Assembly: GCA_964547135.1 (NCBI GenBank)
Contig: CAZJMK010000011.1
Span: 2,881-66,880 of the forward strand
Length of the DNA stretch: 64,000 bases
Origin: an uncultured Phycisphaeraceae bacterium
GTDB taxonomy: Bacteria > Planctomycetota > Phycisphaerae > Phycisphaerales > Phycisphaeraceae
Reading direction: 5' to 3'
Position 1 is the stretch's first letter; each line of letters starts with the position of its first letter. The translations under genes were made by a program, and so were the position numbers. This document shows, piece after piece, positions 3,205-60,809 of this stretch. Below the pieces are notes generated by a model. That model made no database searches. It was given only the letters and a program-made list of their open reading frames with translations, and was not told the origin of the DNA.

Positions 3205-3592
3205 AGCCGACGCGACAAGTCGCAGCGTTCACCAGCAATGTGGCACCGCCGCCCTCGGCGGTGTGAACGTCGATGGTGATTCACCCAGCCGGGGGCGGCT
3301 GGGCTACCACCGGCAGCTCGCTTTTCACGCCAAGTCGCCAAGGTGCCAAGCCGCCAAGAAAACCAGACATCGGAAATAGACCACGATGACACGAAGTAAG
3401 AAGCGGCCGAGTGCCAGAACCAAGCCAAGAACGAGGCTGGCAAGCCGAGGGCTTGGGTATGGTTTCGTGACTCGGACATAAATTGTATTTGTCTTCACTT
3501 GGCCACTTGACCACTCGACCACTTCATATGACGCGATAAATTGCGGCGTTGACCAGCAATGTGGCACCTCTGCCTGATATGATGCAGCGACT

Positions 3593-4198
3593 ATGTCGGC
3601 TACCGACCCACCCCGCGAGCACGCATCTTCCGCCGCCAAGCCGGTCATTTTCCAGCAACTTGATCGCTGTCAATCGTATCCTTACCCGTTGAGTTTTTAC
3701 CTTCGCCGAGCTTTGTGGGAATGGGTGCAGCGCTTGTTCATCCGACTCAGCCCGCGACGTGCTCACGGTTGGCGACGATTCTGGCTCCGCCTTTTTGGGG
3801 CCGACATCACCGGGCGCAGCGGGTTTTCCTCGCGCGTCTGCATCATGCACCCCTGGCTGCTAAAAGTCGGTCAATATTCCATGCTCGGCGACCATGTCCA
3901 CGTGTACAACCTTGGCCCGATCACCATCGGCGACCACACCGTCATTTCACAAGACGTTTACCTCTGTGCCGGGACGCATGATTACACACAGCCCGACCTG
4001 CCGCTCGTTCGCCCTTCCATCACCATCGGCAGCGGCGTTTGGATTTGTGCCGGTGCGTTCATCGGCCCGGGTGTCACCATCGGCGACAACGCCATCGTCG
4101 GCGCAAGGGCGGTGGTCACCAAAGATGTGCCCCCCGGCATGATCGTTGCCGGCAACCCGGCCAGGGTGATCAAAGTTCGTCCGATGGCGTGTCGATGA
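3593..4198 (+). CDS. WcaF-like hexapeptide-repeat O-acetyltransferase
   Basis: Left-handed beta-helix hexapeptide repeats (IGDHTVISQDVYLCAGTHD, IGSGVWICAGAFIGPGVTIGDNAIVGARAVV). The N-terminal membrane-proximal region is typical of colanic-acid WcaF-type acetyltransferases. Confidence 0.8.
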   Translation: MSATDPPREHASSAAKPVIFQQLDRCQSYPYPLSFYLRRALWEWVQRLFIRLSPRRAHGWRRFWLRLFGADITGRSGFSSRVCIMHPWLLKVGQYSMLGDHVHVYNLGPITIGDHTVISQDVYLCAGTHDYTQPDLPLVRPSITIGSGVWICAGAFIGPGVTIGDNAIVGARAVVTKDVPPGMIVAGNPARVIKVRPMACR

Positions 4199-5283
4199 TC
4201 GCAAGGATGGATGAACGGTGTTTGACCAGAGCCAAACAACTTACCGCGATAAATGAGACCCGTATGCCAACCAAAGCAACTTCAACTTCCGTATCGCCCG
4301 TGCCGCCGGACCCACGGGTTCATGAATGGGTCGCGCAACTGCAACCCCAGCGTCAGCCTTCCGGCCATTGGCCGGCTCTGCACTCGGTTCCCGTTTCGGT
4401 GTTGGTCCCCGTGAAAAACGAAGCCAACAACATTGTGGAATGTCTGAGGCACCTGAGTTGGGCCGACCAACTGGTCGTGGTGGACAGCCAATCCATGGAT
4501 CAGACCGTGCCCATGGCTCAGGCGATGGGTGCGGATGTGTATCAGTTTTACATGTCGCCGGAAGGTTGGCCCAAAAAGCGCAACTGGGCGATCGAAACCG
4601 TTCAGTGGCGAAACCCCTGGTTGCTGGTGATGGACGCTGACGAACACATGACCCCGGAACTGACGCAGGAGGTGGTTCAGGTGGTCACCGGAAAACATCA
4701 ACCCAAAGATGCGCGCTCTGCTGGTTGCGGCGATGGTTACTGGGTCAATCGTCGCTTCATGTTCATGGGCCAATGGATCAAACACTGCGGCTATTACCCC
4801 AGCTACAACGTTCGCCTCTTCAAGCATGCCATCGGGCGGTACGAACGCATGGCCAGGGTCGGCAACACCAACTCCGGCGACAACGAAGTCCACGAACACG
4901 TCATCCTCTCCACCGGCCAACCCGGTTATCTTCAGCACGACTTTCTGCACTACGCTTACCCGGACCTTTACGCCTGGGTCGAAAAACACAATCGCTATTC
5001 CAACTGGGAAGCCCATGTCATGACTGCCGGCAACCAGGGCCAGCTCAAAAGTAATTTGTTCGGCAACGCCCTGGAACGTCGCCGCTGGATCAAGCGCTTT
5101 GCTTCGCACCTGCCCATGCGGCCCACCCTGCGCTTTATTTACAACTACCTCTTCCGCGCCGGGTTTCTCGACGGCTACCCGGGTTATGTCATGTGTCGTC
5201 TCTTGGGGTGGTACGAGTTTGTCTCGCTGGCCAAATACCACGAATTAAAACGCGGTTCCCCGCACACCCAGCAGCGCAAGTAA
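4195..5283 (+). CDS. family-2 glycosyltransferase
   Basis: GT2 signature (VSVLVPVKNEANNIVECL..VVVDSQSMDQT..VMDADEHM). The ATG at 4195 overlaps the upstream stop as ATGA, suggesting translational coupling. The track's longer start at 4039 is an Arg/His-rich out-of-context extension. Confidence 0.75.
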   Translation: MIARMDERCLTRAKQLTAINETRMPTKATSTSVSPVPPDPRVHEWVAQLQPQRQPSGHWPALHSVPVSVLVPVKNEANNIVECLRHLSWADQLVVVDSQSMDQTVPMAQAMGADVYQFYMSPEGWPKKRNWAIETVQWRNPWLLVMDADEHMTPELTQEVVQVVTGKHQPKDARSAGCGDGYWVNRRFMFMGQWIKHCGYYPSYNVRLFKHAIGRYERMARVGNTNSGDNEVHEHVILSTGQPGYLQHDFLHYAYPDLYAWVEKHNRYSNWEAHVMTAGNQGQLKSNLFGNALERRRWIKRFASHLPMRPTLRFIYNYLFRAGFLDGYPGYVMCRLLGWYEFVSLAKYHELKRGSPHTQQRK

Positions 5284-5366
5284 ATGCACAACGCCTCAGT
5301 CGGGGCTGCGGATGCTTTTACCCAGTCAAGGGTACATCACGCGGCAGTTGCCTGCGTTGTCTGTGC

Positions 5367-7120: not shown

Positions 7121-7260
7121 TGTACGAATATTTCCGCCTTTCCCGCTTTCGGTTGTAAATTTTCTGTTTGCTTGAGCCTTGCGCTCGGAATCATGATAAA
7201 GTCATGATTGTGTCGCAACCTGTGCATTTGGCTTGCACCAATCGTTGACGGAAACATCAA

Positions 7261-10989: not shown

Positions 10990-11395
10990 CAATCATGATA
11001 GCGAGTTGTAGCGACGCACGAATGATTAGAAATCAACCAAGTTAAACGCATTCTCCTTGTACCGTCGATAGCTGCAACTTCGGAAATGGGCCACGATGAC
11101 ACGAAGCAAGAAGTGGCCGAGTGGTCAAGTGGTCAAGTGGTCGAGTGACAGAACCGTGACCGGGCACATCATGTCAACCGACCCAGCCGAGGGCGGCTGG
11201 GCCACAAAGAAAATGCTCAATCGCCCGGCCACTTCTTCAACCGATTGACCGACTCACCGACCCACCGATTACCCACTCCAACCAGACGCGATAAATCGCG
11301 GCGCTAACTCTCGAATACGATTTCATCACTTGACCACTTGACCACTTCTTCAACCGATTGACCGACTCACCGACCAACTGATTAACCACTTCCAT
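10990..11395. repeat. composite intergenic repeat block
   Basis: Holds (gaagtggccgagtgg/tcaagtgg)n, cccagccgagggcggctggg and caaccgattgaccgactcaccgacc (twice), plus cgcgataaatcgcggcgctaac. The same modules recur in about 25 other spacers. Confidence 0.8.
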
Positions 11396-12243
11396 CAGGC
11401 TGATCGTTTATCCCGTTCGATCAGCGCGTAGGCATTGTGATTGTGAATCGATTCGAAGTTTTCGCTGTTGATCAGGTACCAGGCGATGCGTTCTTCCTTG
11501 TCCAGCGACAGCGCCAGGTCGCGCACGATGTCTTCGACGAACTTGGGGTTTTCGTAAGCGCGTTCGGTCACCCACTTTTCATCGGGGCGTTTGAGCACGG
11601 CAAACACCTGCGTGCTGGCCGACTGCTCGATGATGGCAAAAAGGTCTTCGATCCACAGATGCTTGCCGGGGACAAAGCGGACGCGGGCCTCGATTTCACA
11701 GCGCTGGTTGTGGGCGCCGTATTGCGATATTTCCTTGCTGCAGGGGCATAGGCTCGTGGCCGGGGCACGCACGCCCATGACAAAGTCTTCGCTCTCGCCG
11801 CACGAGGCTTCGAAGCGCACGGTGGCGTCGATCATGCCGGGCGTCCCGGTGACGGGGGCCTTTTTGTGAATGAAGTAGGGGAACTCGAGTTCCAGGTGGG
11901 CTTCGTGAGCCTGCAAACGTTTTTTCATATCCCGGCAAATGTCCATCACCTGATCGGCTCGGATCGCGCCGTGATGTTTGTTGAGCACTTCCAGAAACCG
12001 GCTCATGTGCGTGCCCTTCTGGTAATGAGGCAGGCTGACGTACATGTTGACCCGAGCGACGGTGTGCTGCACGCCGCCGGTGGCGGGACAGAACAGGGCG
12101 ATGGGGTAGGTGATGTGTTTGACGCCGACCTTGTCGATGGGCACGTTGCGATGATCGCTGGCGGACTGCACATCGGGCATGGGTGCCTGCGCGGTATTGC
12201 CGGTCGGGTCGGGGCTGACGGATGTTTCACGGTTACGAGGCAT
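11395..12243 (-). CDS. folE2: GTP cyclohydrolase FolE2/MptA family
   Basis: FolE2 hallmarks are present: SLCPCSK and ESIHNHNA motifs at the expected spacing. The true start may be at the internal M. Confidence 0.75.
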   Translation of the reverse strand: MPRNRETSVSPDPTGNTAQAPMPDVQSASDHRNVPIDKVGVKHITYPIALFCPATGGVQHTVARVNMYVSLPHYQKGTHMSRFLEVLNKHHGAIRADQVMDICRDMKKRLQAHEAHLELEFPYFIHKKAPVTGTPGMIDATVRFEASCGESEDFVMGVRAPATSLCPCSKEISQYGAHNQRCEIEARVRFVPGKHLWIEDLFAIIEQSASTQVFAVLKRPDEKWVTERAYENPKFVEDIVRDLALSLDKEERIAWYLINSENFESIHNHNAYALIERDKRSA

Positions 12244-12425
12244 GGACCTGTCCTTGGGGGGAAACCTGTAATGTTATGAGTTGTCGTGAGGCAAGGCAAA
12301 AAGGTGCAAGGGCGGGTGGGGTAGGGTGTAGGCAATTTCGAATTTCGAATTTCGAATTTTGTGCTAACGATGATAATTGCATCGCCCACGCCTGAACTTC
12401 ACGTCTGCGTGAAGTTCAGGATGGT

Positions 12426-14320: not shown

Positions 14321-14550
14321 GGGAAGCGGCCAAGTGAATTGTATTGGGTTAGCGCCGCGATTTATAGCGTCTGACATTGTAGCCCAGCCCCGGGGGCGCC
14401 CTCGGCACAGGGCAGTTGACGCCGTACCCTTCAGGGCCGGATGGTTTGGTTTGTCATGCAGGAAAACCATCCGGGGCTGAAGCCCTCGGCGTCATGGGTT
14501 GATTCAAACCATCATCACAATCACGCAATCAAGCATTCGCAACAACCGCA

Positions 14551-15228: not shown

Positions 15229-15592
15229 CGCCTCCGCCTCCCTGTTACACATCACAAAACAACACACTCACCCCTCAGGTGTATGTCACCCAAGGGCACG
15301 ACCAACACACTCCCCCGCCCAGACAATCCAACATACCCGCGTATTTCTGCAAAGTCCATATTAAAAAAGAACAATCAGTATTTTTTGGGAGGGTCATTTT
15401 CGAACCCGTGGTTCAATCCGTTGGCGACACCCAAGTGATTGACGCCGTACCCTTGAGGGCCGGATTATTTGCAGGTGAAATCCGGGGCGAAAGCCCTTGG
15501 CGTCATGGGTTGATTCAAACCAGCCTCACAATTAACCAATCCCCAGATTACCCAATCGCCAGATCACCAAATCACTGATTACAATCCCTTTC

Positions 15593-16770: not shown

Positions 16771-16818
16771 TGATCCGGGGCTAAAGCAATTTGCGTTAAT
16801 TATTGGAATGCTTGAATC

Positions 16819-17057
16819 CCCTCTCCCTCCGGGAGAGGGTGGCCGAGTCCGCGAGGCCGGGTGAGGGCGTGTCTTGGAAATATCTGGCAAACGAAAGTAT
16901 GAGTATCACAGACGCCCTCACCCTAACCCTCTCCCTCCGGGAGAGGGTGGCCGAGTCCGCGAGGCCGGGTGAGGGCGTGTCTTGGAAATATCTGGCAAAC
17001 GAAAGTATGAGTATCACAGACGCCCTCACCCTAACCCTCTCCCGGAGGGAGAGGGGA
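16819..17057. repeat. tandem direct repeat, 2.2 copies of a ~109-bp structured unit
   Basis: Units start at 16819, 16928 and 17036. Each contains the palindrome CCTCTCCCTCCGGGAGAGGG nested in CGCCCTCACCC..GGGTGAGGGCG. A related single unit lies at 32125-32200. Confidence 0.9.
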
Positions 17058-17129
17058 CTGAACAAGGCATGTCGCTCTCCAAGGAATTTCGCGAATTGCT
17101 CTCAAGCCCTCGGCGTCATGACTGATCAC

Positions 17130-19316
17130 TTACTTGATGAACAACATTTCGCTGTACTTGGGCAGCGGCCAAATGTCATCAGCGATGATGTTTTCCAAGG
17201 CATCGGAAGCCTTGCGCACGCTCAGCATCGCGGGCACCACTTCATCACGGAAGTGCTTGGCGTGATGCAGCACATCACCTTCGCTCTTGTGTGCCACCGC
17301 ATGTTCGAGTTTGTCGATGGCTGACTCCAGTGAACCCACCAGGTCGGTGATTTTGTCCAGGCTGGTGGTGTCCACCTTTTTGCCCGCGTTTTTCATGGCC
17401 GAGGCGGTGTGCGCCAATTCACCCTGATACCGATACGCAGCCGGCAGCACATGTTCACGGGCGACTTCCAAGGCCACCAGGCTCTCGGTGTTCACATCCT
17501 TGCAGTAACGTTCCAGGTAGATTTCATAGCGCGAGTGCGTTTCCCTGGGCGACAGCACGTTGTATTTGTCGAAGAGGCTCAGGTGTTCCTTGTTGGGCAG
17601 TTCCGCCAGGGCATCGACGGTGTTACGCAGGTTGGGCAGACCGCGCTTCTCGGCTTCCTTGTGCCAGGCTTCCGAGTACCCATCGCCATTGAAAATGATG
17701 GCCTTGTGTTCCTTGTAGATTTCACCAATGATGTCCTGCGCCGCAGCAGGCAGCTTCTTCAAGTCACCCTTGATGCGTTTTTCAATCTCCGCGGTGACGA
17801 AATCCAGCGACTCCGCCACGATGGTGTTGAGCACCACCAAAGGCCCGGCAATCGATTGGCTCGAACCCACGGCTCGGAACTCGAACTTGTTGCCGGTGAA
17901 GGCAAACGGGCTGGTGCGGTTACGATCGCCATAGTCCTTGGGCAACGGCGGCAGGGTATCCACGCCGACGGTCAGATGGCCCTGACCCTTGGGGCCTTTG
18001 ATTTTGCCCTTGGCGATGGATTCGAAAATATCGGTGAGCATGTCACCAAGGAAGATGCTGATGATGGCCGGGGGCGCTTCATTGGCACCCAGACGATGAT
18101 CGTTACCACTGTGAGCCACGCCGACGCGCAGCAACTTGCTCCACTTATGCACCGCCCGAATCACCGCCACGCAGAAGAGCAGGAACTGCATGTTTTCGTG
18201 GGGGGTTTCGCCGGGTTCCAAAAGGTTGCCGACCTTGGCGCCGCCCAGCGACCAGTTGAGGTGCTTGCCGCTGCCGTTGATCCCGGCAAAGGGTTTTTCG
18301 TGCAGCAGACATTCCATCCCGTATTTCTGAGCGATGCGCTTGAGCGTGGTCATCACCAGTTGCTGATGGTCGGCTGCGAGGTTGGCGTTTTCATAAACCG
18401 GGGCGATCTCGTACTGACTGGGCGCCACTTCATTGTGACGGGTTTTCACCGGCACGCCGAGTTTGTAAAGCTCACGTTCACTTTCGAGCATGAACGCCAG
18501 CACGCGATCAGGGATCACGCCGAAGTACTGGTCTTCAAATTCCTGGCCCTTGGGCGGCTTGGCACCAAAAAGCGTACGACCGGTGAGCAACAGGTCCGGT
18601 CGGCTGTAGTAGAAGTTACGATCAATGAGGAAGTATTCCTGCTCCGGCCCGGCGGTGGCGAAAATAAAACCCGGATTGTCATTGCCCAGGGCATTGAGCA
18701 GGCGCGTGGCTGCCTTGGAAAGCGCCTGCATCGAACGCAGCACCGGGGTTTTTTTGTCGAGGGCTTCACCGGTCCAGGAAACGAAAGCGGTGGGAATGAC
18801 CAGCACCGTACCGTTGGGGTTTTCCAGAATGTAGGCAGGGCTGGTCACGTCCCAGGCGGTGTAGCCGCGCGCTTCGAAGGTGGCGCGGATGCCGCCGGAG
18901 GGGAAGGAGGAGGCATCGGGTTCGCCTTGAATCAACTGCTTGCCGGTGAACTCGGCCAGGGCGCCGCCCTTGTAATCGGGGCTGAGGAAGCTGTCGTGCT
19001 TTTCCGCGGTGATGCCGGTGAGCGGGTAGAAGACGTGTGCGTAGTGCGTGGCCCCTTTTTCAATGGCCCAGTCACGCATGGCTGTGGCCACGGCATCGGC
19101 GACCGAAGCGTCCAGCTTGGCGCCTTCGTCGATGGTTTTCTTCAGGGCTTTGTACACAGCCTTGGGCAGACGCTCCTGCATGACCGATTCGCTGAAGACG
19201 TTGGCGCCGAAGATGTCCTTGGCGGGCGTCTGCGCGAAGTTCAAGCGGGATTCCAGCGGCTTGTACGAATTGATGGCAGCGATGGCGGCGTAACGAGCAT
19301 TCTGATTGGCGGCCAT
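17130..19316 (-). CDS. glnN: type III glutamine synthetase
   Basis: 728 aa. The N-terminal block is collinear with GSIII ([46 protein letters not shown]). Confidence 0.85.
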
Positions 19317-19843
19317 GAGAACTTAACTCCTTCCAGTGAGACGGTGTTGAGGGTGTAAAAAATTGAGGCGCACGGATGGACGATGCACACTTTGCAAGGT
19401 CCGTGCCCAAGTGATGCGATTGTTTTGGAGCCCCTTGTAAACCCGGTGATTCGCAGATTGTAGGTGCTGCAACGCCTGCGTCCAGTAACAATTTAATAGG
19501 ACCCCCAAATGCCTATTTAATGCGCGCCGACAAAAGACCCAGGCTTGGTTTGCCTAGTTGTTGATCGGTGGGTGTAACAAGCCCATCGGCTGTGAATGGT
19601 GTGACGGGTCGGAATGGGTCTAACTTCAGGGGTAGGGATGCAAATATCAGGCCGAGGGCGTGGCGGTGATAGAAGTGGCCGAGTGACGGAACCGTATGCG
19701 AATGTTAGCGCCGCGATTTATCGCGTCGATGGTTGCCAGGCAAGCGCGGTGATGACAAATCGGTATCGGGTCGGTTATGATACTTTCGCATCAACATCAC
19801 CCATCATCAGGTACTCACCACCAACTTCACGAAGGAGATCGTC

Positions 19844-20557: not shown

Positions 20558-20961
20558 TTGGGTGAATTGACGATGCGGTGATTTTTCAGGACGGTTTCGA
20601 ATCATACATGACGCCGAGGGCTTTAGCCCCGGATTGTTTGCATGATGAAAAGACAAACATCCGGCCCTAAAGGGCACGGCGTCAAAATCAAGCGCGAAAA
20701 AAACAGAAATCACCCAATCACCCAAGGGTTCAATGAAGAATACCCGGACCCTCGTCATTCGCTGCGCTCATGCCTCGTTCCCGGCTTGGATTCAACACCA
20801 CAACAAATCAAAATCGACTCGCCATTTTTTGTCGAATCATCAAACCCTAACCGTTTTCCAATCTTTTACCGATGCCCGGCATTGGTTGATGGACTATGGT
20901 AAAGCGTGCGGCGAGTTGGGGTGTTTTTTTGTCATCCGGGCTGATGGGAAGCGAGGGTTCC

Positions 20962-21843: not shown

Positions 21844-21854
21844 AAACATTTAGC

Positions 21855-21885
21855 CCCCGGTCAATGACCGGGGGTTTGTTTTTTG
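21855..21885 (+). terminator. rho-independent terminator after the DUF1559 gene
   Basis: gcccccggtca atgaccgggggc stem followed by a T-run (tttgtttttt). Confidence 0.6.
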
Positions 21886-22171
21886 GGTCGTGGGTATAGG
21901 AGGCTGTGTGCTGATGACGCCGAGGGCTTTAGCCCCGGATGGTTTGCACATTGTCCATTATCCAATGATATTCATGGTGGGTCCGCTCGCAGACGCGCTT
22001 GACCCACCCTGCACAGCTTGGTTGCCGAGTGCCACTGGCAGCTTGTCTGCCAGTGCATTCCCACTGCAGCGCGTCATGGCAATACCATCAACGATCACAG
22101 ACGCGATCCATCGCGGCGCTCACCAAAGCGCCGACGCAAAGCGTCCGAGCCAAACAAATCCGAAATTTACG

Positions 22172-23179
22172 TCACCGGTTGGGTTTGGCGGGCAGGGTGA
22201 GGGTCAGGCCGGTGGGCAGGTTGTGCGGATTGGGGATTTTGCTTTGATTAGCGCGGTAGATGAGGTCCCACAATTCACCGTTGCCGTATTCACGTCGGGC
22301 GATGGCGTACAACGTGTCACCGGATTTCACCGTCACCGACTTGCGCGTTGCCGTTGAGGTGTTGGCACTGCCGGTGGAAACCGCCGTATTGGAACGGTGG
22401 CTGTTCCCGGCTGAGGCGCTGCCGGTGCTGTTGGAGTCATCGGGCAGACGGATGGTCATGCCGGTGCGTAAACGTTCGGGCGTCAGGCCGGGGTTGGCAG
22501 CGACGATGCGTTTCCAATGAGCACCGTTGCCCAGGTGAGCTTGCGCGATTTTCCAAAGCGTATCGCTTTCCTTGACGGTGTAACGCTTGCTGCTGGTGCG
22601 TGTGGCAGCGGCCCCCGTACTGGTCGATGCGGTGGTCGCACTGCTGGTGGAACCGGGGCGGGTGGCGGTGGTGGTTGAACTGGTCGTGGTGGTGGGGGCG
22701 GGCGGGTCCATCAAAGTGCGTTGCGGGTTGTCCCACGGATTGGCGATGCTGGTCGTGGCACTGCCGGGCAAAGCACCGGGGGTTGTACCCGAATTGAAAC
22801 CGGGGTTACCGGGGGCGGGGGCGGGCCAGTTGTTGGCGGTGATGGGTTGGGGCTGTTCGTTCACCAGGCCGGAACCGGGCAGGGTGCTGGTCAGGCCGGT
22901 GGTGGAAGTGGAACCGATGCCGGTGGTGGCGGAACCGGCTGCGGAGGGGTCGCGCAGGTAATCATCACCGGTGGCCAGGTCGTTTTCGACGGGGCCTTTT
23001 TTAATGCCGGCGATGATGCCGAAGACGGCGACCATGATCAGGGCGAGTATGCCCAGCCCGGCCACGAGAATGACCTTGGGGTTACGGGTCGAGGCGGCCT
23101 GCATCGGCGGGATGGTGACAGCCGTGGCTGAACCGCTGGTGGACGAGGAAGGGTTGATCGGCGTGGGGTTATTGGATTG
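22172..23179 (-). CDS. LysM-domain membrane protein with Ser/Thr/Pro-rich linker
   Basis: Two C-terminal LysM repeats (YTVKESDTLWKIAQ..., VTVKSGDTLYAIAR...). One TM helix (ILVAGLGILALIMVAVFGII). The track's longer start runs into intergenic repeats. Confidence 0.7.
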   Translation of the reverse strand, partial: QSNNPTPINPSSSTSGSATAVTIPPMQAASTRNPKVILVAGLGILALIMVAVFGIIAGIKKGPVENDLATGDDYLRDPSAAGSATTGIGSTSTTGLTSTLPGSGLVNEQPQPITANNWPAPAPGNPGFNSGTTPGALPGSATTSIANPWDNPQRTLMDPPAPTTTTSSTTTATRPGSTSSATTASTSTGAAATRTSSKRYTVKESDTLWKIAQAHLGNGAHWKRIVAANPGLTPERLRTGMTIRLPDDSNSTGSASAGNSHRSNTAVSTGSANTSTATRKSVTVKSGDTLYAIARREYGNGELWDLIYRANQSKIPNPHNLPTGLTLTLPAKPNR

Positions 23180-23748
23180 CATGGGTGCGACTCCCGGACC
23201 CAAAGCGGAGGTGCACACGACGCGCTTGTGGGGGGATGGTGCGAGAACTCGGCGCGGAATTGGCGCCGTTGATTCATAGATTATCGGCACAACGGCGGTT
23301 CCGGTCACAAAGATTGTGGGAAGGGGAAGAAGTGGCCCAGTGGTCGAGGGATTGTACATTTTGTGGTGTATTGATCGCATGAGTGTCTTTGTGGCCCAGC
23401 CGCCCCCGGCTGGGCGAACAACCCTTGTCAGCCCCACCGCCGAGGGCGCCCCCGGGGGCGGTGCCACATTCACAGACGTGACCAATCGCGGCGCTATGTC
23501 CATTGACGCCGAGGGCTTTAGCCCCGGTTTTCAACCGCAAACATCCGGCCCTGAAGGGCACGGCGTCATGCGCCGACGCAAAGCGTCCGCGCTAAACATT
23601 TGATACCACTCGACCACTTGACCACTTCTTCAACGCACTTGCTGGCGCTATGATTGCCTCCTAAACTTCCAACGCCGTAAAATGCCGATGAGTGTCGTAC
23701 CGTGGCTGTTTGCCCCCGATACGCCCCCTACCTTGCAGGTGCGGATGC

Positions 23749-25352: not shown

Positions 25353-25362
25353 AGTTACCAAC

Positions 25363-26400: not shown

Positions 26401-26604
26401 AGAAGTGGCCGGGTGGTCAAGTGACGGAATCGTGTACGGTAGTTAGCGCCGCGATTGATCGCGTCTGATCGAAGTGGTGAATCGGTTAATCGGTGAGTCG
26501 GTTAATCGGCAAAATTATTTCTATTTCTGACCGATTAACCAATTATCCGTTTCACCGATAAACCACTACTTGACCATTTCCCCATTTGCCCGCAAACTTC
26601 CCCC

Positions 26605-28972: not shown

Positions 28973-28974
28973 GA

Positions 28975-35380: not shown

Positions 35381-35384
35381 TTTC

Positions 35385-35577: not shown

Positions 35578-35581
35578 CATC

Positions 35582-41327: not shown

Positions 41328-41449
41328 CCACAGAGGCACAGAGACACAGAGTCAAAAAAAGGGGCTGGGGGCTGGTAGCTGGGTGCTTGGAAATACTGCC
41401 ACCATCGTCGATTCTGCCCAGCACTCAGCCACTAGTACCCAGCCCCCGG
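41328..41449. repeat. gene-less MITE-like element (same family)
   Basis: ggggctgggggctggtagctgggtgcttgg ... ctgcccagcactcagccactagtacccagcccccgg. Confidence 0.7.
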
Positions 41450-43289: not shown

Positions 43290-43398
43290 TGAATATACAT
43301 TTCGGATTTCGAATTGAAAACAAGCCAAGGACGAGTGAACCTCGCCGTAGGCGAGTGAACGAGGACTTGGGTATGTTTGGTGATCGATTGAATCGTCA

Positions 43399-43607
43399 GT
43401 TAGCGCCGCGATTGATCGCGTCTGATCGGAGTAGTTACTCGGTGGGTCGGTTATTCGGTTGAAGAAGTGGCCGAGTGATTCTAAATGTTTAGCGCGGACG
43501 CTTTGCGTCGGCGTTCTGAGTTAGCTCCGAGATTGATCGCGTCTGATCGGAGTAGTTACTCGGTGAGTCGGTGGGTCGGTTATTCGGTTGAAGAAGTGGC
43601 CGAGTGA
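43399..43607. repeat. tandem duplication of an ~80-bp composite intergenic repeat
   Basis: gttagcgccgcgattgatcgcgtctgatcggagtagttactcggtgggtcggttattcggttgaagaagtggccgagtga occurs at 43399-43478 and again, slightly diverged, at 43520-43607. The two are separated by the gacgctttgcgtc hairpin. Confidence 0.9.
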
Positions 43608-44102
43608 CCGAGTGCAGTACCAAAAAGCCGTTAAAAAACTGTTTCATAACTGATTTGCGTGGGGCAGGTGTCCTTTGCTTGATTCTGAGCCGCGACCCCC
43701 GGGGGCGGTAGTGAGCGGTCGAAGAACCACGCGCTTCCGCTCGTGGCTCTGAGCAACACCAGTGTCCGCTCGTGGCTCCGAGTCCGGAAGGAGTTATGAA
43801 ACAGTTTCTAATCCCCACCTGTTTTGAACATGATCCATCACTTACAAACATCCGGCCCTGCCCCCGGTGGGCACGGCGTCAAAATCGCCTGTGTGCTTGT
43901 TATTCACCCAGCCGGGGGCGCCCCCGGCGGCTGGGCTACAATCAGGCACGATCAATCGCGGCGCTAATTTTCGAGTACTACTCCGGCACTTGACCACTTG
44001 GCCACTTGGCCACTCGACCACTTCAGCAATACCCCCTTGGCGCAGGCGCACAAGTGACTACGATTCATCAACCATCGCACCAGCCAACAAGGGGACCATG
44101 CG

Positions 44103-45344: not shown

Positions 45345-45412
45345 ACATCATCCATTATCCTTTATCCATCATCCATCGTTCACCCAGCCGGGGGCGGCCG
45401 GGCTACACAGAA

Positions 45413-48187: not shown

Positions 48188-48564
48188 TGTCGCTGGCAAT
48201 ACACGCCTCACTTCAACATAGCCGTACCCCACACCCTTGAACAACGCTGGTTCCGGGTGTGGTCCCTACAGGTATGGGTCGGTTGCCTAGTTGCGGCAAA
48301 TCACGTGAAAACCGTTACCGCTGGTGCGATGTCAACCTTGCGGGTTGTCGCAGTCGTTGCAATCGGCACAGCAGGTTTATATGGACGCAGATTGGAGGAA
48401 GTGGCCGAGTGATGACGTAGGGTGGGTCAAGCGAGTCCGCGAGCGGACCCACCAATGACGTGATGGATGATGGATAATGGTTAATGGATAATGTTCGAAC
48501 ACAGAGTTGATGGACGTAAACCTGCTCTGAACATAATCCATCATCCTTTATCCATGATCCATCA

Positions 48565-50490
48565 TTACTGCCGTTGCGTCTGCACAGGCACCCGGGGTTG
48601 GGTCGGCGCAGCCGGGGCGGGGGTGAGTTCAACGCCTGTGGGTACGGGGAACGCACGTGCCGGGTCCAGGCCGATCTCTTTGCTCTGTTCTTCAAACGCT
48701 GTCCGCAGACGTTGATACACCCGGCCCTGCAACACCGTCGGCGTGTTCCGCCAGATGCGCGCCTTGAGCAAAATGTCTTCCGCACTGTTGATCGGGGCCA
48801 TCATCAACCCGATGTAGGTTTCCGCCACCACCTGATCAAACGGCAGAAACGCCATGCGCCGCTGATCCAGGTTCGGGTTGGCCACCGCACGCGCCTGATT
48901 TTTTTCATGCGCCAGTTTGGCCATCTGCACCGAATGTTCAAACACCTCCAGCCGATTGTTCGCAAGTCCCTGCGTGAACGCCTGAATCAGCATCGAATCA
49001 ATGAACTGGCGGGCAAAACTCAACTGATCAATATTCTCCGACAATTCACCGAACACCAGTTCCACCAAGGGCTGCGTGTATTTGCCGCTGGCGATACGTT
49101 CAGGCCGACTGCCGTAAAGCTCGCGCACGCGCTGGTAATAACGATTGGCTTCCTCCTGCGATCCGTACAGGTATGACCACACAATGGCCTTGAGCAGAAA
49201 ATTCTCATGACCAGCCTGGTAACTTTCCTTGGGGTTGCCCCGCCATTCACGTGCCATTAAATCACTGATCGCCAATTCCCACGCCTTTTCATAAGCCGGG
49301 ATGAACCGCGGGTCCGGCAGCAGATCCAAACGACCGGTGAACGGATCAAAATTCACCCGTCCCGAATCGGTCAGCGATTGCAGACTGTGCACCACCTGCC
49401 GATAGGTGTTGAGCAGGTCCACCTGCTGACTGCCCTTGATTTCCCCCGCCACGCGCGTGCCCATCGCATTCCAATACAGCGCCTGCGCCGCCGGGTGACG
49501 AAAATCCAGCGGACCAAAACCAAACCCGCCTTCGGCTTCAGGCAGCATCAATTCCAGCATGAACGCCGGGTCCATGAAGTAATCATCACGCAACGCCTGT
49601 TTGCGTAAATACGGCAGCAGCGCGTCCCACGCCGTCGCCAAGGCCGGCCGTTGATACAACTCCACCAGGCGACGATCAAAAATATCAGGGCGCTCGTTGC
49701 TGGAAAGCCCCAGGGCCGTCGCGTCCTCCGACTGTTTGAACATCACCAGCCGACCGACCTGTCGCAGCAGCCGAGTGTCGATGTCAAACCCCAGTCGATT
49801 CAACTCGGCCAGCAACTGTTCGACCTGTGGCGAGGCTTTGCGCAACTCTGAAAGTGTGTCCGGCGCAGCAACAATTTTCCTCCAGGGTTCAACCACTTTT
49901 TGAATGTCATTGGACCCGATCGGCGCACCGAGCAGCTCATGCCACTCTTCCGCGAGTCTGCGCTTGTAGTACCAGTGCATGTCGTCCATGAACCCGCCGA
50001 CTTTATGGAAAAAGATGTAGCCCAGTTCCTTGTAAAGCTGCACATTTCGCGGATTCAGCGGAATGCCCCGGTCACGCAAAAGTCGTATGCCCTTGTTGAC
50101 CCAATCCCACCGTTCCTGCGGCGTGTACGTGGCGACGGAAATGTTGTACGCCATGTTCCAGGCATGAAACACCCACACCGAGGCAAACGACGGTTGCAGC
50201 GTCGTGATCCACTCCGCCAATGAGTTGGCTTCGTAAAACTTACCCTGCTCTTTGAGCTTGTTGGTGCGATACCACAAAATGTCCGCCACGAGTCCGCGAA
50301 ACGCGCCCATCGCCGCCGTGGTCACCGTCGTGAGCGTGGCCTGTCCCTGCACCGCCTTTGCCGGAAGTTCCGAATGAAACTGCTGATCGATCCGTTGCGC
50401 ACGAATCGGCCCACTGAGCATCGCCGCCGCCCCCAGCAGCACCACCATGCCCACCACACACAGAAGTTGAATCCAATGATTGCGCGTCAT
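48565..50490 (-). CDS. N-terminally anchored hypothetical protein (641 aa), last gene of the SPFH/ABC operon
   Basis: Single N-terminal TM. Large Trp/Tyr-rich soluble domain. No recognisable motif. Confidence 0.4.
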   Translation of the reverse strand: MTRNHWIQLLCVVGMVVLLGAAAMLSGPIRAQRIDQQFHSELPAKAVQGQATLTTVTTAAMGAFRGLVADILWYRTNKLKEQGKFYEANSLAEWITTLQPSFASVWVFHAWNMAYNISVATYTPQERWDWVNKGIRLLRDRGIPLNPRNVQLYKELGYIFFHKVGGFMDDMHWYYKRRLAEEWHELLGAPIGSNDIQKVVEPWRKIVAAPDTLSELRKASPQVEQLLAELNRLGFDIDTRLLRQVGRLVMFKQSEDATALGLSSNERPDIFDRRLVELYQRPALATAWDALLPYLRKQALRDDYFMDPAFMLELMLPEAEGGFGFGPLDFRHPAAQALYWNAMGTRVAGEIKGSQQVDLLNTYRQVVHSLQSLTDSGRVNFDPFTGRLDLLPDPRFIPAYEKAWELAISDLMAREWRGNPKESYQAGHENFLLKAIVWSYLYGSQEEANRYYQRVRELYGSRPERIASGKYTQPLVELVFGELSENIDQLSFARQFIDSMLIQAFTQGLANNRLEVFEHSVQMAKLAHEKNQARAVANPNLDQRRMAFLPFDQVVAETYIGLMMAPINSAEDILLKARIWRNTPTVLQGRVYQRLRTAFEEQSKEIGLDPARAFPVPTGVELTPAPAAPTQPRVPVQTQRQ

Positions 50491-50636
50491 GTTCGGGGCG
50501 AATCGGTTAATTGGTTAACAGGTTGGTCAGACGCCGAGCCCTTCAGGGCCGGATGATCGTTGAATGAAACCGGGGCTAAAGCCCTCGGCGTCATTTTTTT
50601 CCATGGTTTATTTCTCTGCACTCGACCACTTTCTAT

Positions 50637-52478: not shown

Positions 52479-52719
52479 TGCTGAATCACTGTCGGGGTGC
52501 ATGTGGGCAGGCGTTGCTATCAACCCACTGCGGTTTTCGTCTGTGGCACCCAAAGCGTTTCAATACATTGCTTGATACCACTCGTGGCGCTGGCTTATCA
52601 ATGCGAGGTTCGCTGAATCGGAGGGCTTCCACAACCAGCCTTTTTTCTCAATTCGAAATTCGACGGCTTCAACAGCGGGGCTTCCCGCTCAATTCGAAAT
52701 TCGAAATTCGAAATCAGTT

Positions 52720-54269: not shown

Positions 54270-54478
54270 TGATGGTGAATCGGTTGGTCGGTGAATCGGT
54301 GAATCAAACGCCGAGCACTTTAGGGCCGGATGATCGTCGGAAGAATCCGGGGCTAAAGCCCTCGGCGTCTCGGCCACTTGGCCACTGCTTTCCGTCAGAT
54401 ACCCAAGTCCTCGTCCGCCTGCGGCGACCTCGTCCTTGGCTTGGCAAATCCGAAATTCGAAATTCCAAATTCGAAATT
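54270..54478. repeat. composite intergenic repeat block
   Basis: ggtgaatcggttggtcggtgaatcggtgaatc and the inverted pair aacgccgagcactttagggccggat / atccggggctaaagccctcggcgtc. The ccaagtcctcgtcc..cctcgtccttggcttgg hairpin and an (aaattcg)n tract are also present. Confidence 0.8.
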
Positions 54479-56004
54479 CATCTCCCCATCCGTGCATCCT
54501 GTTCGGCTTTCAACCTTGCCTGTTCACGTTGACGTTTCAAGTTCTGGTCACGGTTGAGGTCCAAATACGTCTGGCCCGTCGGCACGTAAAACACTTCAAT
54601 ATCACCGGTCATGGTCTGGTCCACCATGTCCTGCCAGCGACGTGACAAAAACACCCCCGGGCTTTGCTGATACTGTTGCAACAAACCCTGTTGCGGGCTG
54701 TCGGGGAAAATCGCTTTGGGGTTAAAGGCCAGTGCCTCCGCCTGCACCTGTGCGACGATCGACGATCGGGCTGCGCGTGCCTCGTTGATCGCCTGTGCCA
54801 CCCGTCCGCCGATGGGCGTCACCACTCGTTCCCGCATCGGCACCTCATGCTTTTCCAGTGCCGCTTCATACGCCCGGTTGGCGGCCACCACCTTCTCCGC
54901 TTCCGCTGCCGCCCGTCGCAACGCTTCGAGTTGCAGGTATGCGTTCCAAACTTCGTCCCCCGCGTCGCCATCCAGCCCCGCCCAGCCGGGCACGTTGAGG
55001 TGTTGAAACACCACATCCAAGCGGGCATCGAGTTTGGTCAATGCCTGCATATCACCCGCACCTCGGGCGCGTTCGTAGCGATCAATCAATCGGCGAATCG
55101 GCTCGTACCCCGCCCCTGCGGTTTCATTCAAACTCGAAAGCGCTTCCTGCCGGGCTTTTTCAATTTTCTGCGCCTTTTCACTGGCGGCTTCGGTCACCGC
55201 TCGGAACGCCGGCTGAACCGCTGCGGGGAACTTGGGCGTGCTCGCAGTCACTTCACTGACCAGTATGCCCGCCCCGAGGGTGTCCAACACCGTCTGCATG
55301 TGACGCTTGATCGCATCGGCACGCAGGTTGCCAAGTATCGCCTCGTCAGCCGTGACGGTTGCCACGGCGTGTACAATCGCTTCCTCAGCGGCGCCCTGCA
55401 CCAGTCGCTGTGCGGCGCCGAGTGCATTGCGCGGGTCCGACGATGGCGTGGTCACATTGCGGATGAAATCCAGCGGGCGATTGATTTCATACTTCACCGA
55501 AAACCGCGCGTGAATGATGTTGCCGTCGCCGGTGAGCAGCGACCCATCCTTTTCCGGGTTCAGCGGCCCAGCCCGACCTTCCGCCTCCGCCTCGGTCGCC
55601 GCCCCAGCCGGTATTTCATGCCAGAACTCTCGATTCAATGGAAGCTGTTGCGAAGCCACCGGAATGAACACCACCTGATCGATGGGGTACGGGAAGGCAA
55701 AGTAAACCCGACCGGGGCGCATGACCGCCTGTTCCGCGGTGTCGCCGACGATCTGCCCGAAGCGCAGCCGAACGCCGACTTCCTGTGCGGGAATGCCCCA
55801 AACAATGCCCGACAAAAGGTACAGCACCGCCAGCACGAGCATGATCAGTTTGAGTACGCCAAAGCTCACGCGCAAGGCGTCGGCCAGCGAGCGCTGAGCC
55901 GGGTCCATCTCCGCGGTGGGCAGCCCATGATCATGGTCGTGGTCATGATCGTGATCGTCATGACCGTGATGATGTTCAAACGGATTGAAGGGTTTTTCAG
56001 CCAT
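54478..56004 (-). CDS. hflK: HflK-like SPFH (band-7) protein with His/Asp-rich N-terminus
   Basis: N-terminal HHHGHDDHDHDHDHDHG, then a TM helix, SPFH domain and coiled-coil. Confidence 0.7.
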   Translation of the reverse strand: MAEKPFNPFEHHHGHDDHDHDHDHDHGLPTAEMDPAQRSLADALRVSFGVLKLIMLVLAVLYLLSGIVWGIPAQEVGVRLRFGQIVGDTAEQAVMRPGRVYFAFPYPIDQVVFIPVASQQLPLNREFWHEIPAGAATEAEAEGRAGPLNPEKDGSLLTGDGNIIHARFSVKYEINRPLDFIRNVTTPSSDPRNALGAAQRLVQGAAEEAIVHAVATVTADEAILGNLRADAIKRHMQTVLDTLGAGILVSEVTASTPKFPAAVQPAFRAVTEAASEKAQKIEKARQEALSSLNETAGAGYEPIRRLIDRYERARGAGDMQALTKLDARLDVVFQHLNVPGWAGLDGDAGDEVWNAYLQLEALRRAAAEAEKVVAANRAYEAALEKHEVPMRERVVTPIGGRVAQAINEARAARSSIVAQVQAEALAFNPKAIFPDSPQQGLLQQYQQSPGVFLSRRWQDMVDQTMTGDIEVFYVPTGQTYLDLNRDQNLKRQREQARLKAEQDARMGR

Positions 56005-56184
56005 GATTGCCTGTTCACAGGGGCGTGATGCCCGAGGTTGATTCTGTCAAAACATTGGGTTTTCGACCTTGGACTTTATCTCCGTCAGGTACCCGGGCCC
56101 TCGGCACGCGCTTCGCTTGTGCCTCGTTCCCGGCTTGGCTCTGAAAATCCGAAATCCGAAATTCGAAATTCATTGCCACTTCCA

Positions 56185-57129: not shown

Positions 57130-57220
57130 GGGGCTTGTAGCTGGGTGCTTGGGGCTGGGCTTTGGTTTGATCGCCATTCACCTGTCTCTGCCCAGCACCT
57201 AGCTCCTAGTCCCCAGCTCC
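57130..57220. repeat. gene-less MITE-like element (same family) inside the SPFH operon
   Basis: ggggcttgtagctgggtgcttggggctgggc ... gcccagcacctagctcctagtccccagctcc. Confidence 0.7.
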
Positions 57221-57227
57221 GTGCAAT

Positions 57228-59429: not shown

Positions 59430-59565
59430 ACCTCCCGCAAGGGCTATATCTTATGCACGAACCCAACCGGGCAAACAACATTCAAGCTGCTGGCGTATGA
59501 TGAACAATATCGTGTTTCGTCTGTCTCCGTGATCCGTACACCTTTGTCAGCCCGACCGGACCGAC

Positions 59566-60594
59566 ATGCTAGAGCAACTTTTCACCATCAGTCGTAACAC
59601 ATTCCTTGAAAGCATACGTCAGCCGATCTTTGTGGTTCTGCTGATGGTGGGGGCCATGGTACTGATTTTGAACCCAGCCGTGGCCGCCTACACGATGGAT
59701 GATGATAACAAGCTGATGATCGATATGGGGCTGTCCACGCTTTTTGTCATCGGGGTTTTATTGGCCGCCTTCACCGCCACGGGCGTCGTCTCCACTGAAG
59801 TCGAAAATCGCACCGTGCTCACCGTGGTCAGCAAACCCGTGCCCCGTCCCCTGTTTGTGCTGGGCAAATATCTGGGCGTCGGCGTGGCCCTCACCCTTGC
59901 CTTCTGGGTACTGGGCGGTTTGTTTCTGCTTTCAGCTCGTCACGGGGTATTGCAAACCGCCGGTGATGCCTTCGACATGCCCGTCGTCCTTGCCGCCTTC
60001 ATCGCCTGGGCCGGCGCCCTGGCCGTCGGCGCACTGGGTAATTATTTTTACCGCTGGGTGTTCACCTCCAGTTTCGTTTTGTCACTGGCGTTATTGACCA
60101 TTCCAGCCGTGCTGTTGATGCTGCTGGTCGGCAAAGGTTGGCACTTTCAATCCATCAGCACCGAGTTCGGCCTTGAAGGCGCTGCCCGCGGCGGCCGATT
60201 GCTGGTGGTGATGTTGCTGGTGTTGCAGGCCATCTGGGTACTCACCGCTGTCGCCATTGCCGCCTCGACGCGCCTGGGCCAGTTGATGACGCTGATGGTT
60301 TGTGCAGGGGTATTTCTGCTGGGGCTGGTCAGTGAAACCCTGATCCAACCAGCCGTGGCGCGACTGCCCTGGGGCGAGGTCACCAGCCTCGGCTCCCTGA
60401 TCGGCTTTTTACTGGCGCGATTGGCCTCCATCGCTGTGCCCAACCTGCAATTTCTCTGGCTGGTCGATACCCTGCCGCAGGGGTTACCCATTCCCGCCGA
60501 CCACGTCGGTTTGCTGACAATATACGCTTTGCTGCAAATCGGCGCGGTGCTCTGCCTTGCCACCGCCCTCTTCCAAACCCGTGAAGTGGGCTGA
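59566..60594 (+). CDS. ABC-2 family permease (divergent from the operon)
   Basis: VSTEVENRTVLTVVSKPVPRPLFVLGKYLG ABC-2 motif. 6-7 TM helices. Confidence 0.65.
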   Translation: MLEQLFTISRNTFLESIRQPIFVVLLMVGAMVLILNPAVAAYTMDDDNKLMIDMGLSTLFVIGVLLAAFTATGVVSTEVENRTVLTVVSKPVPRPLFVLGKYLGVGVALTLAFWVLGGLFLLSARHGVLQTAGDAFDMPVVLAAFIAWAGALAVGALGNYFYRWVFTSSFVLSLALLTIPAVLLMLLVGKGWHFQSISTEFGLEGAARGGRLLVVMLLVLQAIWVLTAVAIAASTRLGQLMTLMVCAGVFLLGLVSETLIQPAVARLPWGEVTSLGSLIGFLLARLASIAVPNLQFLWLVDTLPQGLPIPADHVGLLTIYALLQIGAVLCLATALFQTREVG

Positions 60595-60809
60595 AACGTA
60601 GTGGTCAAGTGGCCGAGTGCAGAACCCAAGCCAAGGACGAGGAACGTAGTGACGAGGACTTGGGTATGCCCGGTGGTTAAACGGTGAGTCGGTGAGTCGG
60701 TTAATCGGGAAGAAAAAGACAAATAAATACCGACCGAGTAACCGAGTAACCAAACCATACCCACGCGCATCGGCTGGTGATATGATCGTTCTTTTCCAAG
60801 GAACTCATC

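Follow-up and report, generated by a model that had tools for sequence, protein, structure and literature searches.

Ordered palindromic repeats anchored at stop codons occupy most intergenic spacers in a stretch of an uncultured Phycisphaeraceae genome

Gene content and repeat density

We analyzed a 64,000-nt stretch of an uncultured Phycisphaeraceae genome (contig CAZJMK010000011.1; the whole stretch is hereafter referred to as the window), in which short, mostly hairpin-forming repeat modules recur in nearly all intergenic spacers and are arranged in ordered cassettes that begin at stop codons. The window has a G+C content of ~57% and carries ribD, two glycosyltransferase clusters, folE2, miaA, a type III glutamine synthetase gene, pdhA, a 23S-rRNA-IVP-like gene, pdhB, dnaK, a cluster of three SPFH genes with ABC genes, and guaA. 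It also encodes DUF1559/N-methyl and PEP-CTERM proteins, which are typical of Planctomycetota, and the closest named relatives of its pdhB are from Phycisphaeraceae metagenome-assembled genomes (MAGs; 84-85% amino-acid identity). Neither tRNA nor tmRNA genes were found in the window, and an Rfam search of it at gathering thresholds returned 0 matches.

Self-BLAST of the window revealed that repeats cover 3,649 of the 10,337 intergenic nt (35%), compared with 108 of 51,944 coding nt (0.2%), and the repeat share of true intergenic DNA is ~40% after two apparent spacers proved to be genes. Set against dinucleotide-preserving shuffles, M1 (TTAGCGCCGCGATTKATCGCGTC) has 13 matches and M2 (GACGCCGWGSSCTTYAGSSCCGGAT) 15, with 0.00 expected for each, while the octamer motif GAAGTGGYCRAGTG has 34 (0.09 expected). 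Spacers hold 132 of the 142 module blocks, spread over 31 spacers; the remaining 10 lie in coding sequence and are short, mismatched and at chance level. Among true spacers of 100 nt or more, just two are free of modules (7121-7260 and 59430-59565). An earlier reading of this DNA from its letters alone (the sequence-only reading) had put the number of module-bearing spacers at 25 or more, which is correct or conservative, and the motifs it named recur on both strands where it had placed them, with the exception of one mis-transcribed arm (CCTCGTCCTTGGGTAT, for which there is no match; the actual 3' arm is CCGAGGRCTTGGGTAT). Its finding of modules inside operon-type spacers likewise stands, for co-directional genes of the glycosyltransferase (29-37 kb) and SPFH-ABC (50.5-59.4 kb) clusters, and the two tandem duplications it reported are real (16819-17055, a 108-nt unit in 2.2 copies, 97% matching; 43398-43607, 121 nt). 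Three open reading frames (ORFs) made up of repeats (43489-43851, 16803-17324 and 48315-48785) gave no match in Pfam.

Of the two outcomes that the sequence-only reading had named as refuting it, neither occurred: the motifs extend beyond the window, and they fold. Among the matches listed for the exact M1 pattern in 185,579 species genomes, one MAG only was represented, the uncultured Phycisphaeraceae CAYRTH01, in which M1 occurs in at least 11 stretches on at least 10 contigs, alongside other modules. The CAYRTH01 loci used for comparison (71 kb; ~135 kb together with the window) have only the repeats in common with the window; these are 85-90% identical and follow the same order.

Repeat modules

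Most modules, as well as whole spacers, fold better than shuffled sequence, and in this respect the proposal of hairpin-forming modules holds. It does not extend to M1 alone (z = -1.1) or M4 (z = -1.6), which fold weakly, nor to the (GAAATTC)n, octamer and ATCCAT-type motifs, which are tandem arrays that form stems only as inverted pairs and not as single hairpins. M3 and M4, previously listed as separate modules, are one family of canonical repetitive extragenic palindromes (REPs), hereafter referred to as R3/R4. In its members, T-GT(A/G)G is followed by an 8-bp stem that closes a CCCY loop and, mostly, by a tail of the TGA/TGAA type; the stems are CCCAGCCG or CACCGCCG, related by compensatory changes, and the loop sometimes holds an inner GGGGGCGCCC palindrome. 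When the 22 R3/R4 hairpins matched in the window and the MAG were aligned by eye, GTAG or GTGG stood immediately 5' of the stem in 20, and the other two had variant tags (GTCG, GCAG). R3 folds into an 8-bp stem with a 4-nt loop (-17.6 kcal/mol, z = -3.1), in keeping with the imperfect stem-loop palindromes of 20-40 nt that characterize GTAG REPs. The copies are extragenic (10 in 64 kb, with further copies on MAG contigs), and six inverted heterodimers with outward tags were found in the window and MAG (Table 1).

The second REP type, M2, has the end CGGCGTC. All 15 units end in GGCGTC, one of them with AACG at its foot, and the stem is 3+4 bp with a bulge, starts with C-G, encloses a 4-nt loop and has no CCA tail. 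Two stem versions, A (GGGC..GCCC) and B (GCCC..GGGC), differ by a GG/CC swap and are always partnered with each other in inverted doublets; we counted 10 A/B heterodimers and 2 solo units. Two pairs of the stem flip jointly from CG to GC in 6 of 13 variants, and pairing reaches 92% versus 79% in shuffles, a value that none of 500 shuffles attained. Folding of the doublets gave z = -5.5 and -5.8. The designation REP-like is apt: R3/R4 has the 5' GT(A/G)G tag, 8-bp stem, 4-nt loop and inverted doublets, and M2 shows compensatory stem swaps.

M1 and M8 have a common TTAGCGC foot and a short hairpin, M8 being the stronger (z = -4.2). The M1 stem shows a U-A to C-G change, seen in two variant rows of the alignment and in three copies of the cassette comparison, as well as U-G variants. 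M5 is a 43-nt hairpin, and M9 comprises three hairpins within 108 nt (CCCTCTCCC..GGGAGAGGG, GGCC..GGCC and GAGGGCG..CGCCCTC). A known RNA family for the modules was sought with a permissive Rfam search and rejected: the best result was a sub-threshold match to whalefall-1 (RF01762) for one M9-like copy (32127-32184), which scores 23.6 bits against a gathering score of 37. This copy, two hairpins followed by AGGGUGAGG, aligns over all 56 positions of the family, and the tandem M9 copies (16817-17057) reach 15-18 bits; the MAG loci gave no whalefall-1 match at E up to 0.1. Whalefall-1 is a motif of unknown function and host.

The tandem arrays comprise two octamers, G8 (GTGGYCRA) and C8 (TCGGTKAN), and three of the heptamer class, H7 (GAATTTC), P7 (GATGGAT) and S7 (GGGGCTRG). 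They pair with inverted copies and thereby form long stems; the inverted C8 arms at 26472-26568, for example, form a stem of more than 30 bp (z = -8.4).

Cassette order and nesting

The cassettes start 0-13 nt past the upstream stop codon, and the one at 30767 overlaps it. In the direction of the upstream gene, G8 and/or H7 come first, followed by M5, G8, M1 and finally REP doublets or inverted C8 arrays. Where a module begins within 25 nt past a stop, the first one points forward in every case (12 ORFs in the window and 18 in the MAG). Near stops, G8 was found 21 times in sense and once in antisense, while H7 within 45 nt of a stop has 13 sense and 3 antisense cases, counts in which cross-matching between orientations is possible. 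Part of the apparent polarity is automatic, because a G8-forward ... G8-reverse composite reads alike on both strands; the orientation of M1 and M5 and the module order are not explained in this way. The oriented G8-M1 unit (E1) is anchored at 17 stops, whereas ~5 copies instead face a start from 20-80 nt, and C-rich reversed arrays stop a few nt short of starts (e.g., 35582, 52720 and 48565). We also considered that the element might supply the stop codon and rejected this for pdhB: the cassette abuts the native stop, because the pdhB C-terminus ends where those of 30 orthologs end.

The stop-anchored module order means that whole spacers are nested palindromes, with the arrays outermost, M1/M8 next and the REP doublets central. 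In spacer 35381-35581, the predicted outer stem of 22 bp leaves 10 nt to the stop on one side and 10 nt to the next start on the other, and a similar spacer-spanning outer stem is predicted for the pdhB spacer. The folds of repeat spacers have a median z of ~-3 and a lowest value of -11. The earlier description as a combinatorial mosaic therefore understates a clear module order and anchoring at stop codons.

Table 1 Positions of repeat modules in the window, of R3/R4 doublets and of RayT domains in relatives
Position	Strand	Features	Setting
602-793		(GCAGAGA)n 602-628; inverted S7 (GGGGCTRG-type) arrays 715-734, 774-793	convergent spacer
1804-1925	-	G8 unit 1804-1814; small hairpin CAGCAAGGCTTCCCGCT; H7 1904-1925	divergent spacer
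3225-3552		R4+ (3240)/R3- (3307) doublet; G8+ 3403-3413; M5+ 3420-3460; G8- 3496-3522; M1-like minus 3530-3552	
11080-11398	-	C8, G8, M1 11285-11307, C8, R3 11194-11205; opposing G8+ 11113-11147	cassette at folE2 stop (11395, minus)
12333-12361		heptamer (AATTTCG) array, 3.7 copies	divergent spacer
14323-14521	+	G8, M1 14349-14371, GTAG REP 14379, M2B+/M2A- 14418-14493, conserved flank	2 nt past stop 14320
15439-15573		M2B+/M2A- 15441-15504 with flank as at 14323-14521; 16-nt arrays 15531-15573	arrays just upstream of miaA start
16817-17058		M9, 108-nt three-hairpin unit, tandem x2.2	spacer fold z = -11
19672-19727	+	E1 (G8 then M1)	divergent spacer, 120 nt upstream of gene 19844
20607-20789		M2A+/M2B- 20610-20683; reverse M5-type hairpin 20741-20789	
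21914-22153		solo M2A 21916-21940 and degenerate partner; hairpin 21975-22011; M1- 22100-22122, M8r- 22129-22153	M1 and M8r at LysM gene stop (22172, minus)
23329-23634	-	full cassette: G8 23607-23625, M8r 23571-23595, M2 doublet 23505-23567, M1 23475-23497, R4/R3 23391-23467	divergent spacer
24845-25350		inverted S7 24845-24878 / 25317-25350 around 23S_rRNA_IVP/bAvd-like gene 24927-25304	between pdhA and pdhB
26401-26580	+	G8 26405-26423, M1 26443-26465, inverted C8 26476-26565, degenerate reverse G8	2 nt past pdhB stop; inverted C8 z = -8.4
27362-27598	+	H7 27362-27397, M5 27397-27438, M1 27456-27478, M2B+/M2A- 27522-27598	2 nt past stop 27360
29017-29333	-	G8, H7 29279-29314, M5 29235-29274, R4 (29158, 29233), R3 (29017, 29065)	after glycosyltransferase stop 29335 (minus)
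30582-30769	-	G8 x5.5 30723-30766, M1 30681-30703, inverted C8 30582-30675	overlaps stop 30767
31991-32237	-	G8 x5.5 32193-32236, M9-like 32127-32185, M8r 32073-32097, C8 x8.4 31992-32058	4 nt past stop 32242; ~12 nt short of next start
35381-35578	+	H7 35385-35411 and inverted H7 35541-35576, predicted 22-bp stem	across spacer of two GT2 genes
36509-36748		M5+ 36520-36560; inverted C8 36568-36650; reversed E1: M1- 36667-36689, M8r- 36699-36723, G8- 36735-36745	20 nt before start 36768
41361-41446		(CACAGAG)n and inverted S7 pair	between ABC ATPase and S49 peptidase genes
43291-43614	+	H7, M5, [M1-C8-G8] twice (121-nt duplication 43398-43607), M8r between copies	
43869-44025	-	reversed cassette: G8 43987-44021, M1 43945-43967, long-stem GTAG REP 43906-43939, half M2	upstream of start 44103
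45346-45406		(ATCCATY) P7 array and GTAG REP 45383-45406	common to two convergent genes
48398-48563		G8 unit; hairpin 48418-48456; inverted P7 48462-48489 / 48536-48563	1 nt after stop 48565 (minus)
50495-50632	-	G8 50619-50629, M2 doublet 50530-50592, C8 50503-50517	past stop 50637; C8 adjoining next start
52616-52716	-	H7 arrays around hairpin CAGCGGGGCTTCCCGCT	past stop 52720
54272-54479	-	H7 54444-54479, M5 54400-54444, G8, M2 doublet 54307-54369, C8 54274-54305	SPFH-ABC spacer from stop 54478; C8 abutting next start
56090-56184	-	G8 unit, H7 56145-56171, M5 variant 56090-56138	past stop 56185
57130-57220		inverted S7 pair	between two SPFH genes
60598-60753	+	G8 60601-60619, M5 60626-60667, inverted C8 60681-60753	past stop 60594
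3240/3307, 23391/23467, 29065/29158		R3/R4 doublets	window
L004 2285/2351, 3179/3254		R3/R4 doublets	MAG locus
L012 2739/2919		R3/R4 doublet	MAG locus
L092 16703-20383		valS-RayT ORF (RayT ~18100-18560)	distant Phycisphaerae relative
L075 10648-13057		valS-RayT ORF	distant Phycisphaerae relative
L077 17898-20957		valS-RayT ORF	distant Phycisphaerae relative
L082 16270-20217		valS-RayT ORF	distant Phycisphaerae relative

Several further observations concern single spacers. The bAvd-like four-helix (23S-rRNA-IVP) gene between pdhA and pdhB has homologs at the same position in the relatives L015 (9545-9931) and L099 (6279-6608); it is absent in L016, and an unrelated 86-aa ORF takes its place in L014. 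S7 inverted pairs with no enclosed gene occur at 715-793, 41361-41446 and 57130-57220. The 813-nt spacer with the 121-nt duplication has a non-repeated core (43607-43870) that has a perfect 15-bp inverted repeat at its borders (AAACTGTTTCATAAC, ~43636; GTTATGAAACAGTTT, ~43793) and holds GAGCCGCGA...CGAGCGGT-type hairpins, which are also found after M1 in the MAG loci L003 and L008; this core might represent a small RNA or some other element. At their 5' ends, ORFs 22172-23503 and 27638-29338 extend too far, through repeats, and the longest ORFs at 32242-33468 and 4039-5283 also run upstream into repeats or overlap their neighbours (a GT2 gene, 33309-34445, and a hexapeptide transferase gene, 3593-4198), with true starts further downstream. 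Immediately past guaA, at 62001-64000, the G+C content falls to 46.6% and no repeat modules occur. ORF 62332-63519 in this region encodes an AAA_15/AAA_21 ATPase resembling an abortive-infection or OLD-type protein, and the region may be a foreign or defence island.

Occurrence in relatives and phages

The repeat set is restricted to one lineage. No modules were found across four spacers of L014, though its pdhB protein is 96% and its pdhA/pdhB DNA 85% identical to that of the window, nor were any found in the relatives L015, L016, L098 and L099; in 80 metagenome loci of pdhB relatives (868 kb) there was one chance-level match. A covariance model of the M2 doublet recovered all known copies and, in addition, a new one in the MAG and two degenerate ones in the window, and found nothing below E = 0.5 in the relative loci (L014-L099, ~0.93 Mb of the 1.08 Mb searched). 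The spacer after pdhB measures 63-75 nt in relatives versus 204 nt in the window, and the self-repeat density of relatives is mostly far lower than that of the window.

Arrays of the same kind were also seen in phage sequences. In IMG/VR contigs the layout again runs from stop through array, GC hairpin and inverted array to start, while M1, M2 and R3 were not found in IMG/VR and the E1 cassette had no match in GenBank phages. Phage contigs (L100-L105, L108 and L109; 56-70% G+C) carry (GTGGYCRA)n or (GAATTTC)n inverted arms around GC hairpins, L100-L105 being from the uncultivated viral genomes IMGVR_UViG_3300015607_003705, 3300015608_003109, 3300042504_002810 and 3300020577_012112. Terminase, portal and capsid proteins are encoded on L101 and L105 (66-70% G+C). 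L101 has a different 7-8-nt array after most of its genes (e.g., GGCAATG, AAGCGAA, GGGGGTGA or GGCACTR).

Search for a partner transposase

A cognate REP-associated tyrosine transposase (RAYT) or IS200-like gene, which the sequence-only reading had suggested looking for, was not found in the window or the MAG loci by tblastn with E. coli RAYT and IS200 TnpA. The tblastn matches in distant relatives proved to be RayT domains within valS. The valyl-tRNA synthetase ORF of four distant Phycisphaerae relatives contains an in-frame RayT (PF01797) domain (Table 1). These embedded domains have the HuH (PDHVH) and Y motifs, and the REP-encoded peptides GGTGVPPV and RRDACAT lie at their borders; the REP there is GTGG-CACAGGCG-TCCC-GCCTGTG, and stand-alone homologs are named RayT by JGI.

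In other Phycisphaerales, RayT genes are flanked by GT(A/G)G-CACAGGCG REP doublets that are R4-like in style. GTAG REPs have been reported in the PVC (Planctomycetes-Verrucomicrobia-Chlamydiae) group, while no dedicated transposase has been reported for CGTC REPs (PMC3733652). Another report (Quentin et al. 2018, PMC6006769) places class 3 Y1 transposases mainly in Planctomycetes and Acidobacteria and describes high-copy hairpins on their flanks that have a 5' CnGA foot. In reverse complement, M1 (CAGA-CGCGATCAATCGCG-GCGCTAA) likewise shows a CnGA foot followed by a hairpin, and the phylum and the high copy number are also in common; this is a resemblance only, and no class 3 gene was seen here.

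Discussion

We consider it probable, at roughly 60%, that the repeats form a lineage-specific, multi-family system of the REP type, including REP doublets (REPINs) and bacterial interspersed mosaic elements (BIMEs), which was spread by an as yet unseen HUH/Y1 transposase, grows by nested insertion and array slippage, is tolerated in operons through self-folding and likely has a secondary role as RNA stem-loops. A RayT-type enzyme acting in trans would spread hairpin units on single-stranded DNA, and new units would favour the single-stranded loops of existing hairpins as landing sites. Loop insertion of this kind would yield nested palindromes with degenerate arrays outside, by the genes, and well-conserved REP doublets at the centre, while the arrays would change in length by replication slippage. 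Insertions into operon spacers may be tolerated since each would fold on itself, so that the transcript's stop and the next start stay at one stem base. In RNA, the stems would probably also serve as barriers to 3' exonucleases or as processing sites.

The REPs themselves are ordinary in type; what is out of the ordinary is the array-armed, gene-end-anchored nesting and the density. Systems of REP/REPIN and RAYT were reportedly treated by Nunvar in 2010 and by Bertels and Rainey in 2011. As in the REP/REPIN and RAYT (TnpA_REP) systems of E. coli and Pseudomonas (Di Nocera 2013, PMC3733652), R3/R4 places a 5' GT(A/G)G tag right before an 8-bp GC-rich stem with a 4-nt loop and short tail, and is extragenic, multi-copy and arranged in tag-outward inverted doublets in which stem variants pair as heterodimers. 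Here, however, the host is a member of the Phycisphaeraceae, a cognate RayT has so far not been found in the window or MAG loci, the doublets form just the inner core of larger ordered cassettes, and the density is very high, at ~40% of intergenic DNA. M2 resembles the CGTC-tagged REPs of the same source in its CGGCGTC end, 4-nt loop, mainly inverted heterodimers and lack of an associated transposase; it differs in that its stem is 7 bp, bulged and begins CC/GG, whereas the known family has 8-9 bp beginning with A-T pairs, a loop of 4-5 nt and a CCA-like tail, and in that the CGTC of M2 belongs to the outer stem of the doublet. Planctomycetota are not among the five phyla listed for CGTC repeats (PMC3733652).

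Like the BIMEs of enterobacteria, the repeats fill spacers as mosaics of alternately oriented REP variants (Y/Z-like) and other short conserved motifs, within operons too and mostly downstream of genes, but they include many more module families, have tandem 7-8-nt arrays as stem arms and follow a fixed outside-in order anchored at stop codons. Cyanobacterial short tandemly repeated repetitive (STRR) sequences are oriented intergenic heptamer arrays and offer a likeness in kind. Pneumococcal BOX elements are modular (boxA-(boxB)n-boxC), with variable tandem internal units and complementary ends that give a long transcript hairpin; they differ from the repeats of the window in their unrelated sequences, a repeated unit of ~45 nt rather than 7-8 nt and the lack of REP tags. 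The TAACTGA repeats of Beggiatoaceae, Cyanobacteria and Bacteroidetes (MacGregor 2015, PMC4679880) are likewise tandem 7-nt units in spacers, a few nt from starts, in distant lineages, whereas the arrays described here form inverted stem-forming pairs, begin at stops and combine several unit types with REPs, and the unit sequences are unrelated. Our literature search found no publication on intergenic palindromic repeats in Phycisphaerae.

Several points weigh against this REP-type interpretation. Neither the fixed module order nor the anchoring 0-13 nt from stops is predicted by a selfish-element model alone, and M1, by itself, is a weak hairpin. No insertion polymorphism or empty site was seen, all pdhB relatives compared being without modules. 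The window and 71 kb of MAG loci yielded neither a Y1 nor any other transposase, a sample too small to be informative. G8/H7 arrays, but not REPs, occur in phage genomes of 63-70% G+C in the same stop-to-start position, an occurrence that hints at functional signals or an independent origin of the arrays. The earlier suggestion that the system is actively proliferating has as its basis only near-identical copies, two local duplications and absence from relatives, with neither polymorphism nor a partner transposase seen.

The alternative that deserves most attention, although we regard it as unlikely, is that the cassettes are mainly functional cis-acting RNA modules of 3' untranslated or intercistronic regions, whose spread reflects recruitment by selection. 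They might bring stop and start into proximity for translational coupling, provide double-stranded sites for an RNase III-type enzyme (cf. the intercistronic sites of phage T7) or be bound by a protein that reads the 7-8-nt periodicity of the arrays. The uniformly forward first module past stops in both the window and the MAG, the fixed order of G8/H7, M5, G8 and M1, and the intact pdhB C-terminus with the element adjoining the native stop are all in keeping with such roles, as are predicted stems whose two ends lie ~2-10 nt past the stop and 4-10 nt short of the next start and similar arrays in the same position between phage structural genes. Oriented heptamer arrays beside start codons also occur elsewhere, and a role as regulator sites has been suggested for them (PMC4679880). 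However, in 18 co-directional spacers the sense transcript folds no better than the antisense (8 of 18 favour sense; Wilcoxon, P = 1), and there is therefore no G-U signature of selection on the transcript. This equality fits palindromes at the DNA level and makes a purely RNA-functional role less likely. Moreover, full cassettes also occupy divergent, promoter-side spacers (1766-2013, 19317-19843 and 23381-23691), part of the polarity is automatic, as noted above for the G8 composite, and close relatives have short, repeat-free spacers at the same genes.

That the modules act as hairpins for transcript stability or processing, as the sequence-only reading had offered, is plausible. A role as intrinsic terminators was considered and rejected on a scan of window segment 10001-30000: the main modules have no T-tail, and strong terminator-like sites (e.g., 21852-21876) are not repeat modules. 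Ordinary terminators are separate from the modules (21852-21876, and another near 16740 by eye), and the few terminator-like sites within repeat spacers are weak (hairpin 29171-29189; 26497-26510 within C8).

More speculatively, and in our judgement improbable, the stop-anchored ordered cassette (array, M5, array, M1 and central REP doublet) might be an undescribed functional unit that folds on itself, its multi-register outer array stem holding the stop and next start together or marking a site of double-stranded RNA processing, with phages of the group also using the array stems, between their structural genes. Otherwise, the anchoring might arise from a single-strand transposase that targets the non-template strand exposed past stops, where translation and transcription uncouple.

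A further proposal treats the composites as miniature inverted-repeat transposable elements (MITEs), that is, as deletion derivatives of DDE-type insertion sequences moved by cut-and-paste, with the octamer and heptamer arrays as terminal inverted repeats. Many spacers are indeed bounded by inverted arrays, and the composites are non-coding, 100-300 nt long and limited to one lineage. Yet the flanks of 7 M2 and 6 R3/R4 doublets all differ and show no direct target-site duplication, the supposed terminal repeats vary in unit number and type and the elements in length, the core units bear REP tags typical of HUH-type rather than DDE substrates, and the window holds no DDE transposase. The term MITE-like is therefore not supported, target-site duplications, a fixed length and constant terminal repeats all being absent, and we rate such an origin as very improbable.

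The pattern is almost certainly not an artefact of chance matches in low-complexity sequence or of mis-assembly: although mismatch-tolerant short patterns also match coding sequence (10 of 142 blocks), the shuffle expectation is ~0, an independent MAG has the same modules in the same order, and mis-assembly is ruled out because two independent read sets gave contigs that are 100% identical to the window (23573-26466) up to repeat borders and end inside repeats.

These two contigs, from the SRR12977061 and SRR12989705 assemblies (equal to window 23573-26466 and 24582-26466, respectively), break exactly within M8 and M1. Repeats thus fragment short-read assemblies, and such breaks may explain the poor representation of the source genome in public collections.

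Conclusions

Our analysis documents a REP/REPIN-type system in Phycisphaerae. Its repeats break short-read assemblies of the lineage and should be masked in annotation, which will otherwise contain spurious or over-extended ORFs, and the arrays common to phage contigs are a possible host-linking signal. The GT(A/G)G and CGTC doublets, standing alongside arrays in an ordered nesting, provide a readable record of BIME-like mosaic growth. Together, the anchoring at stop codons and the spacer-spanning stems make it possible to test how selfish palindromes are tolerated in operons and whether they have been recruited to serve coupling or RNA processing.

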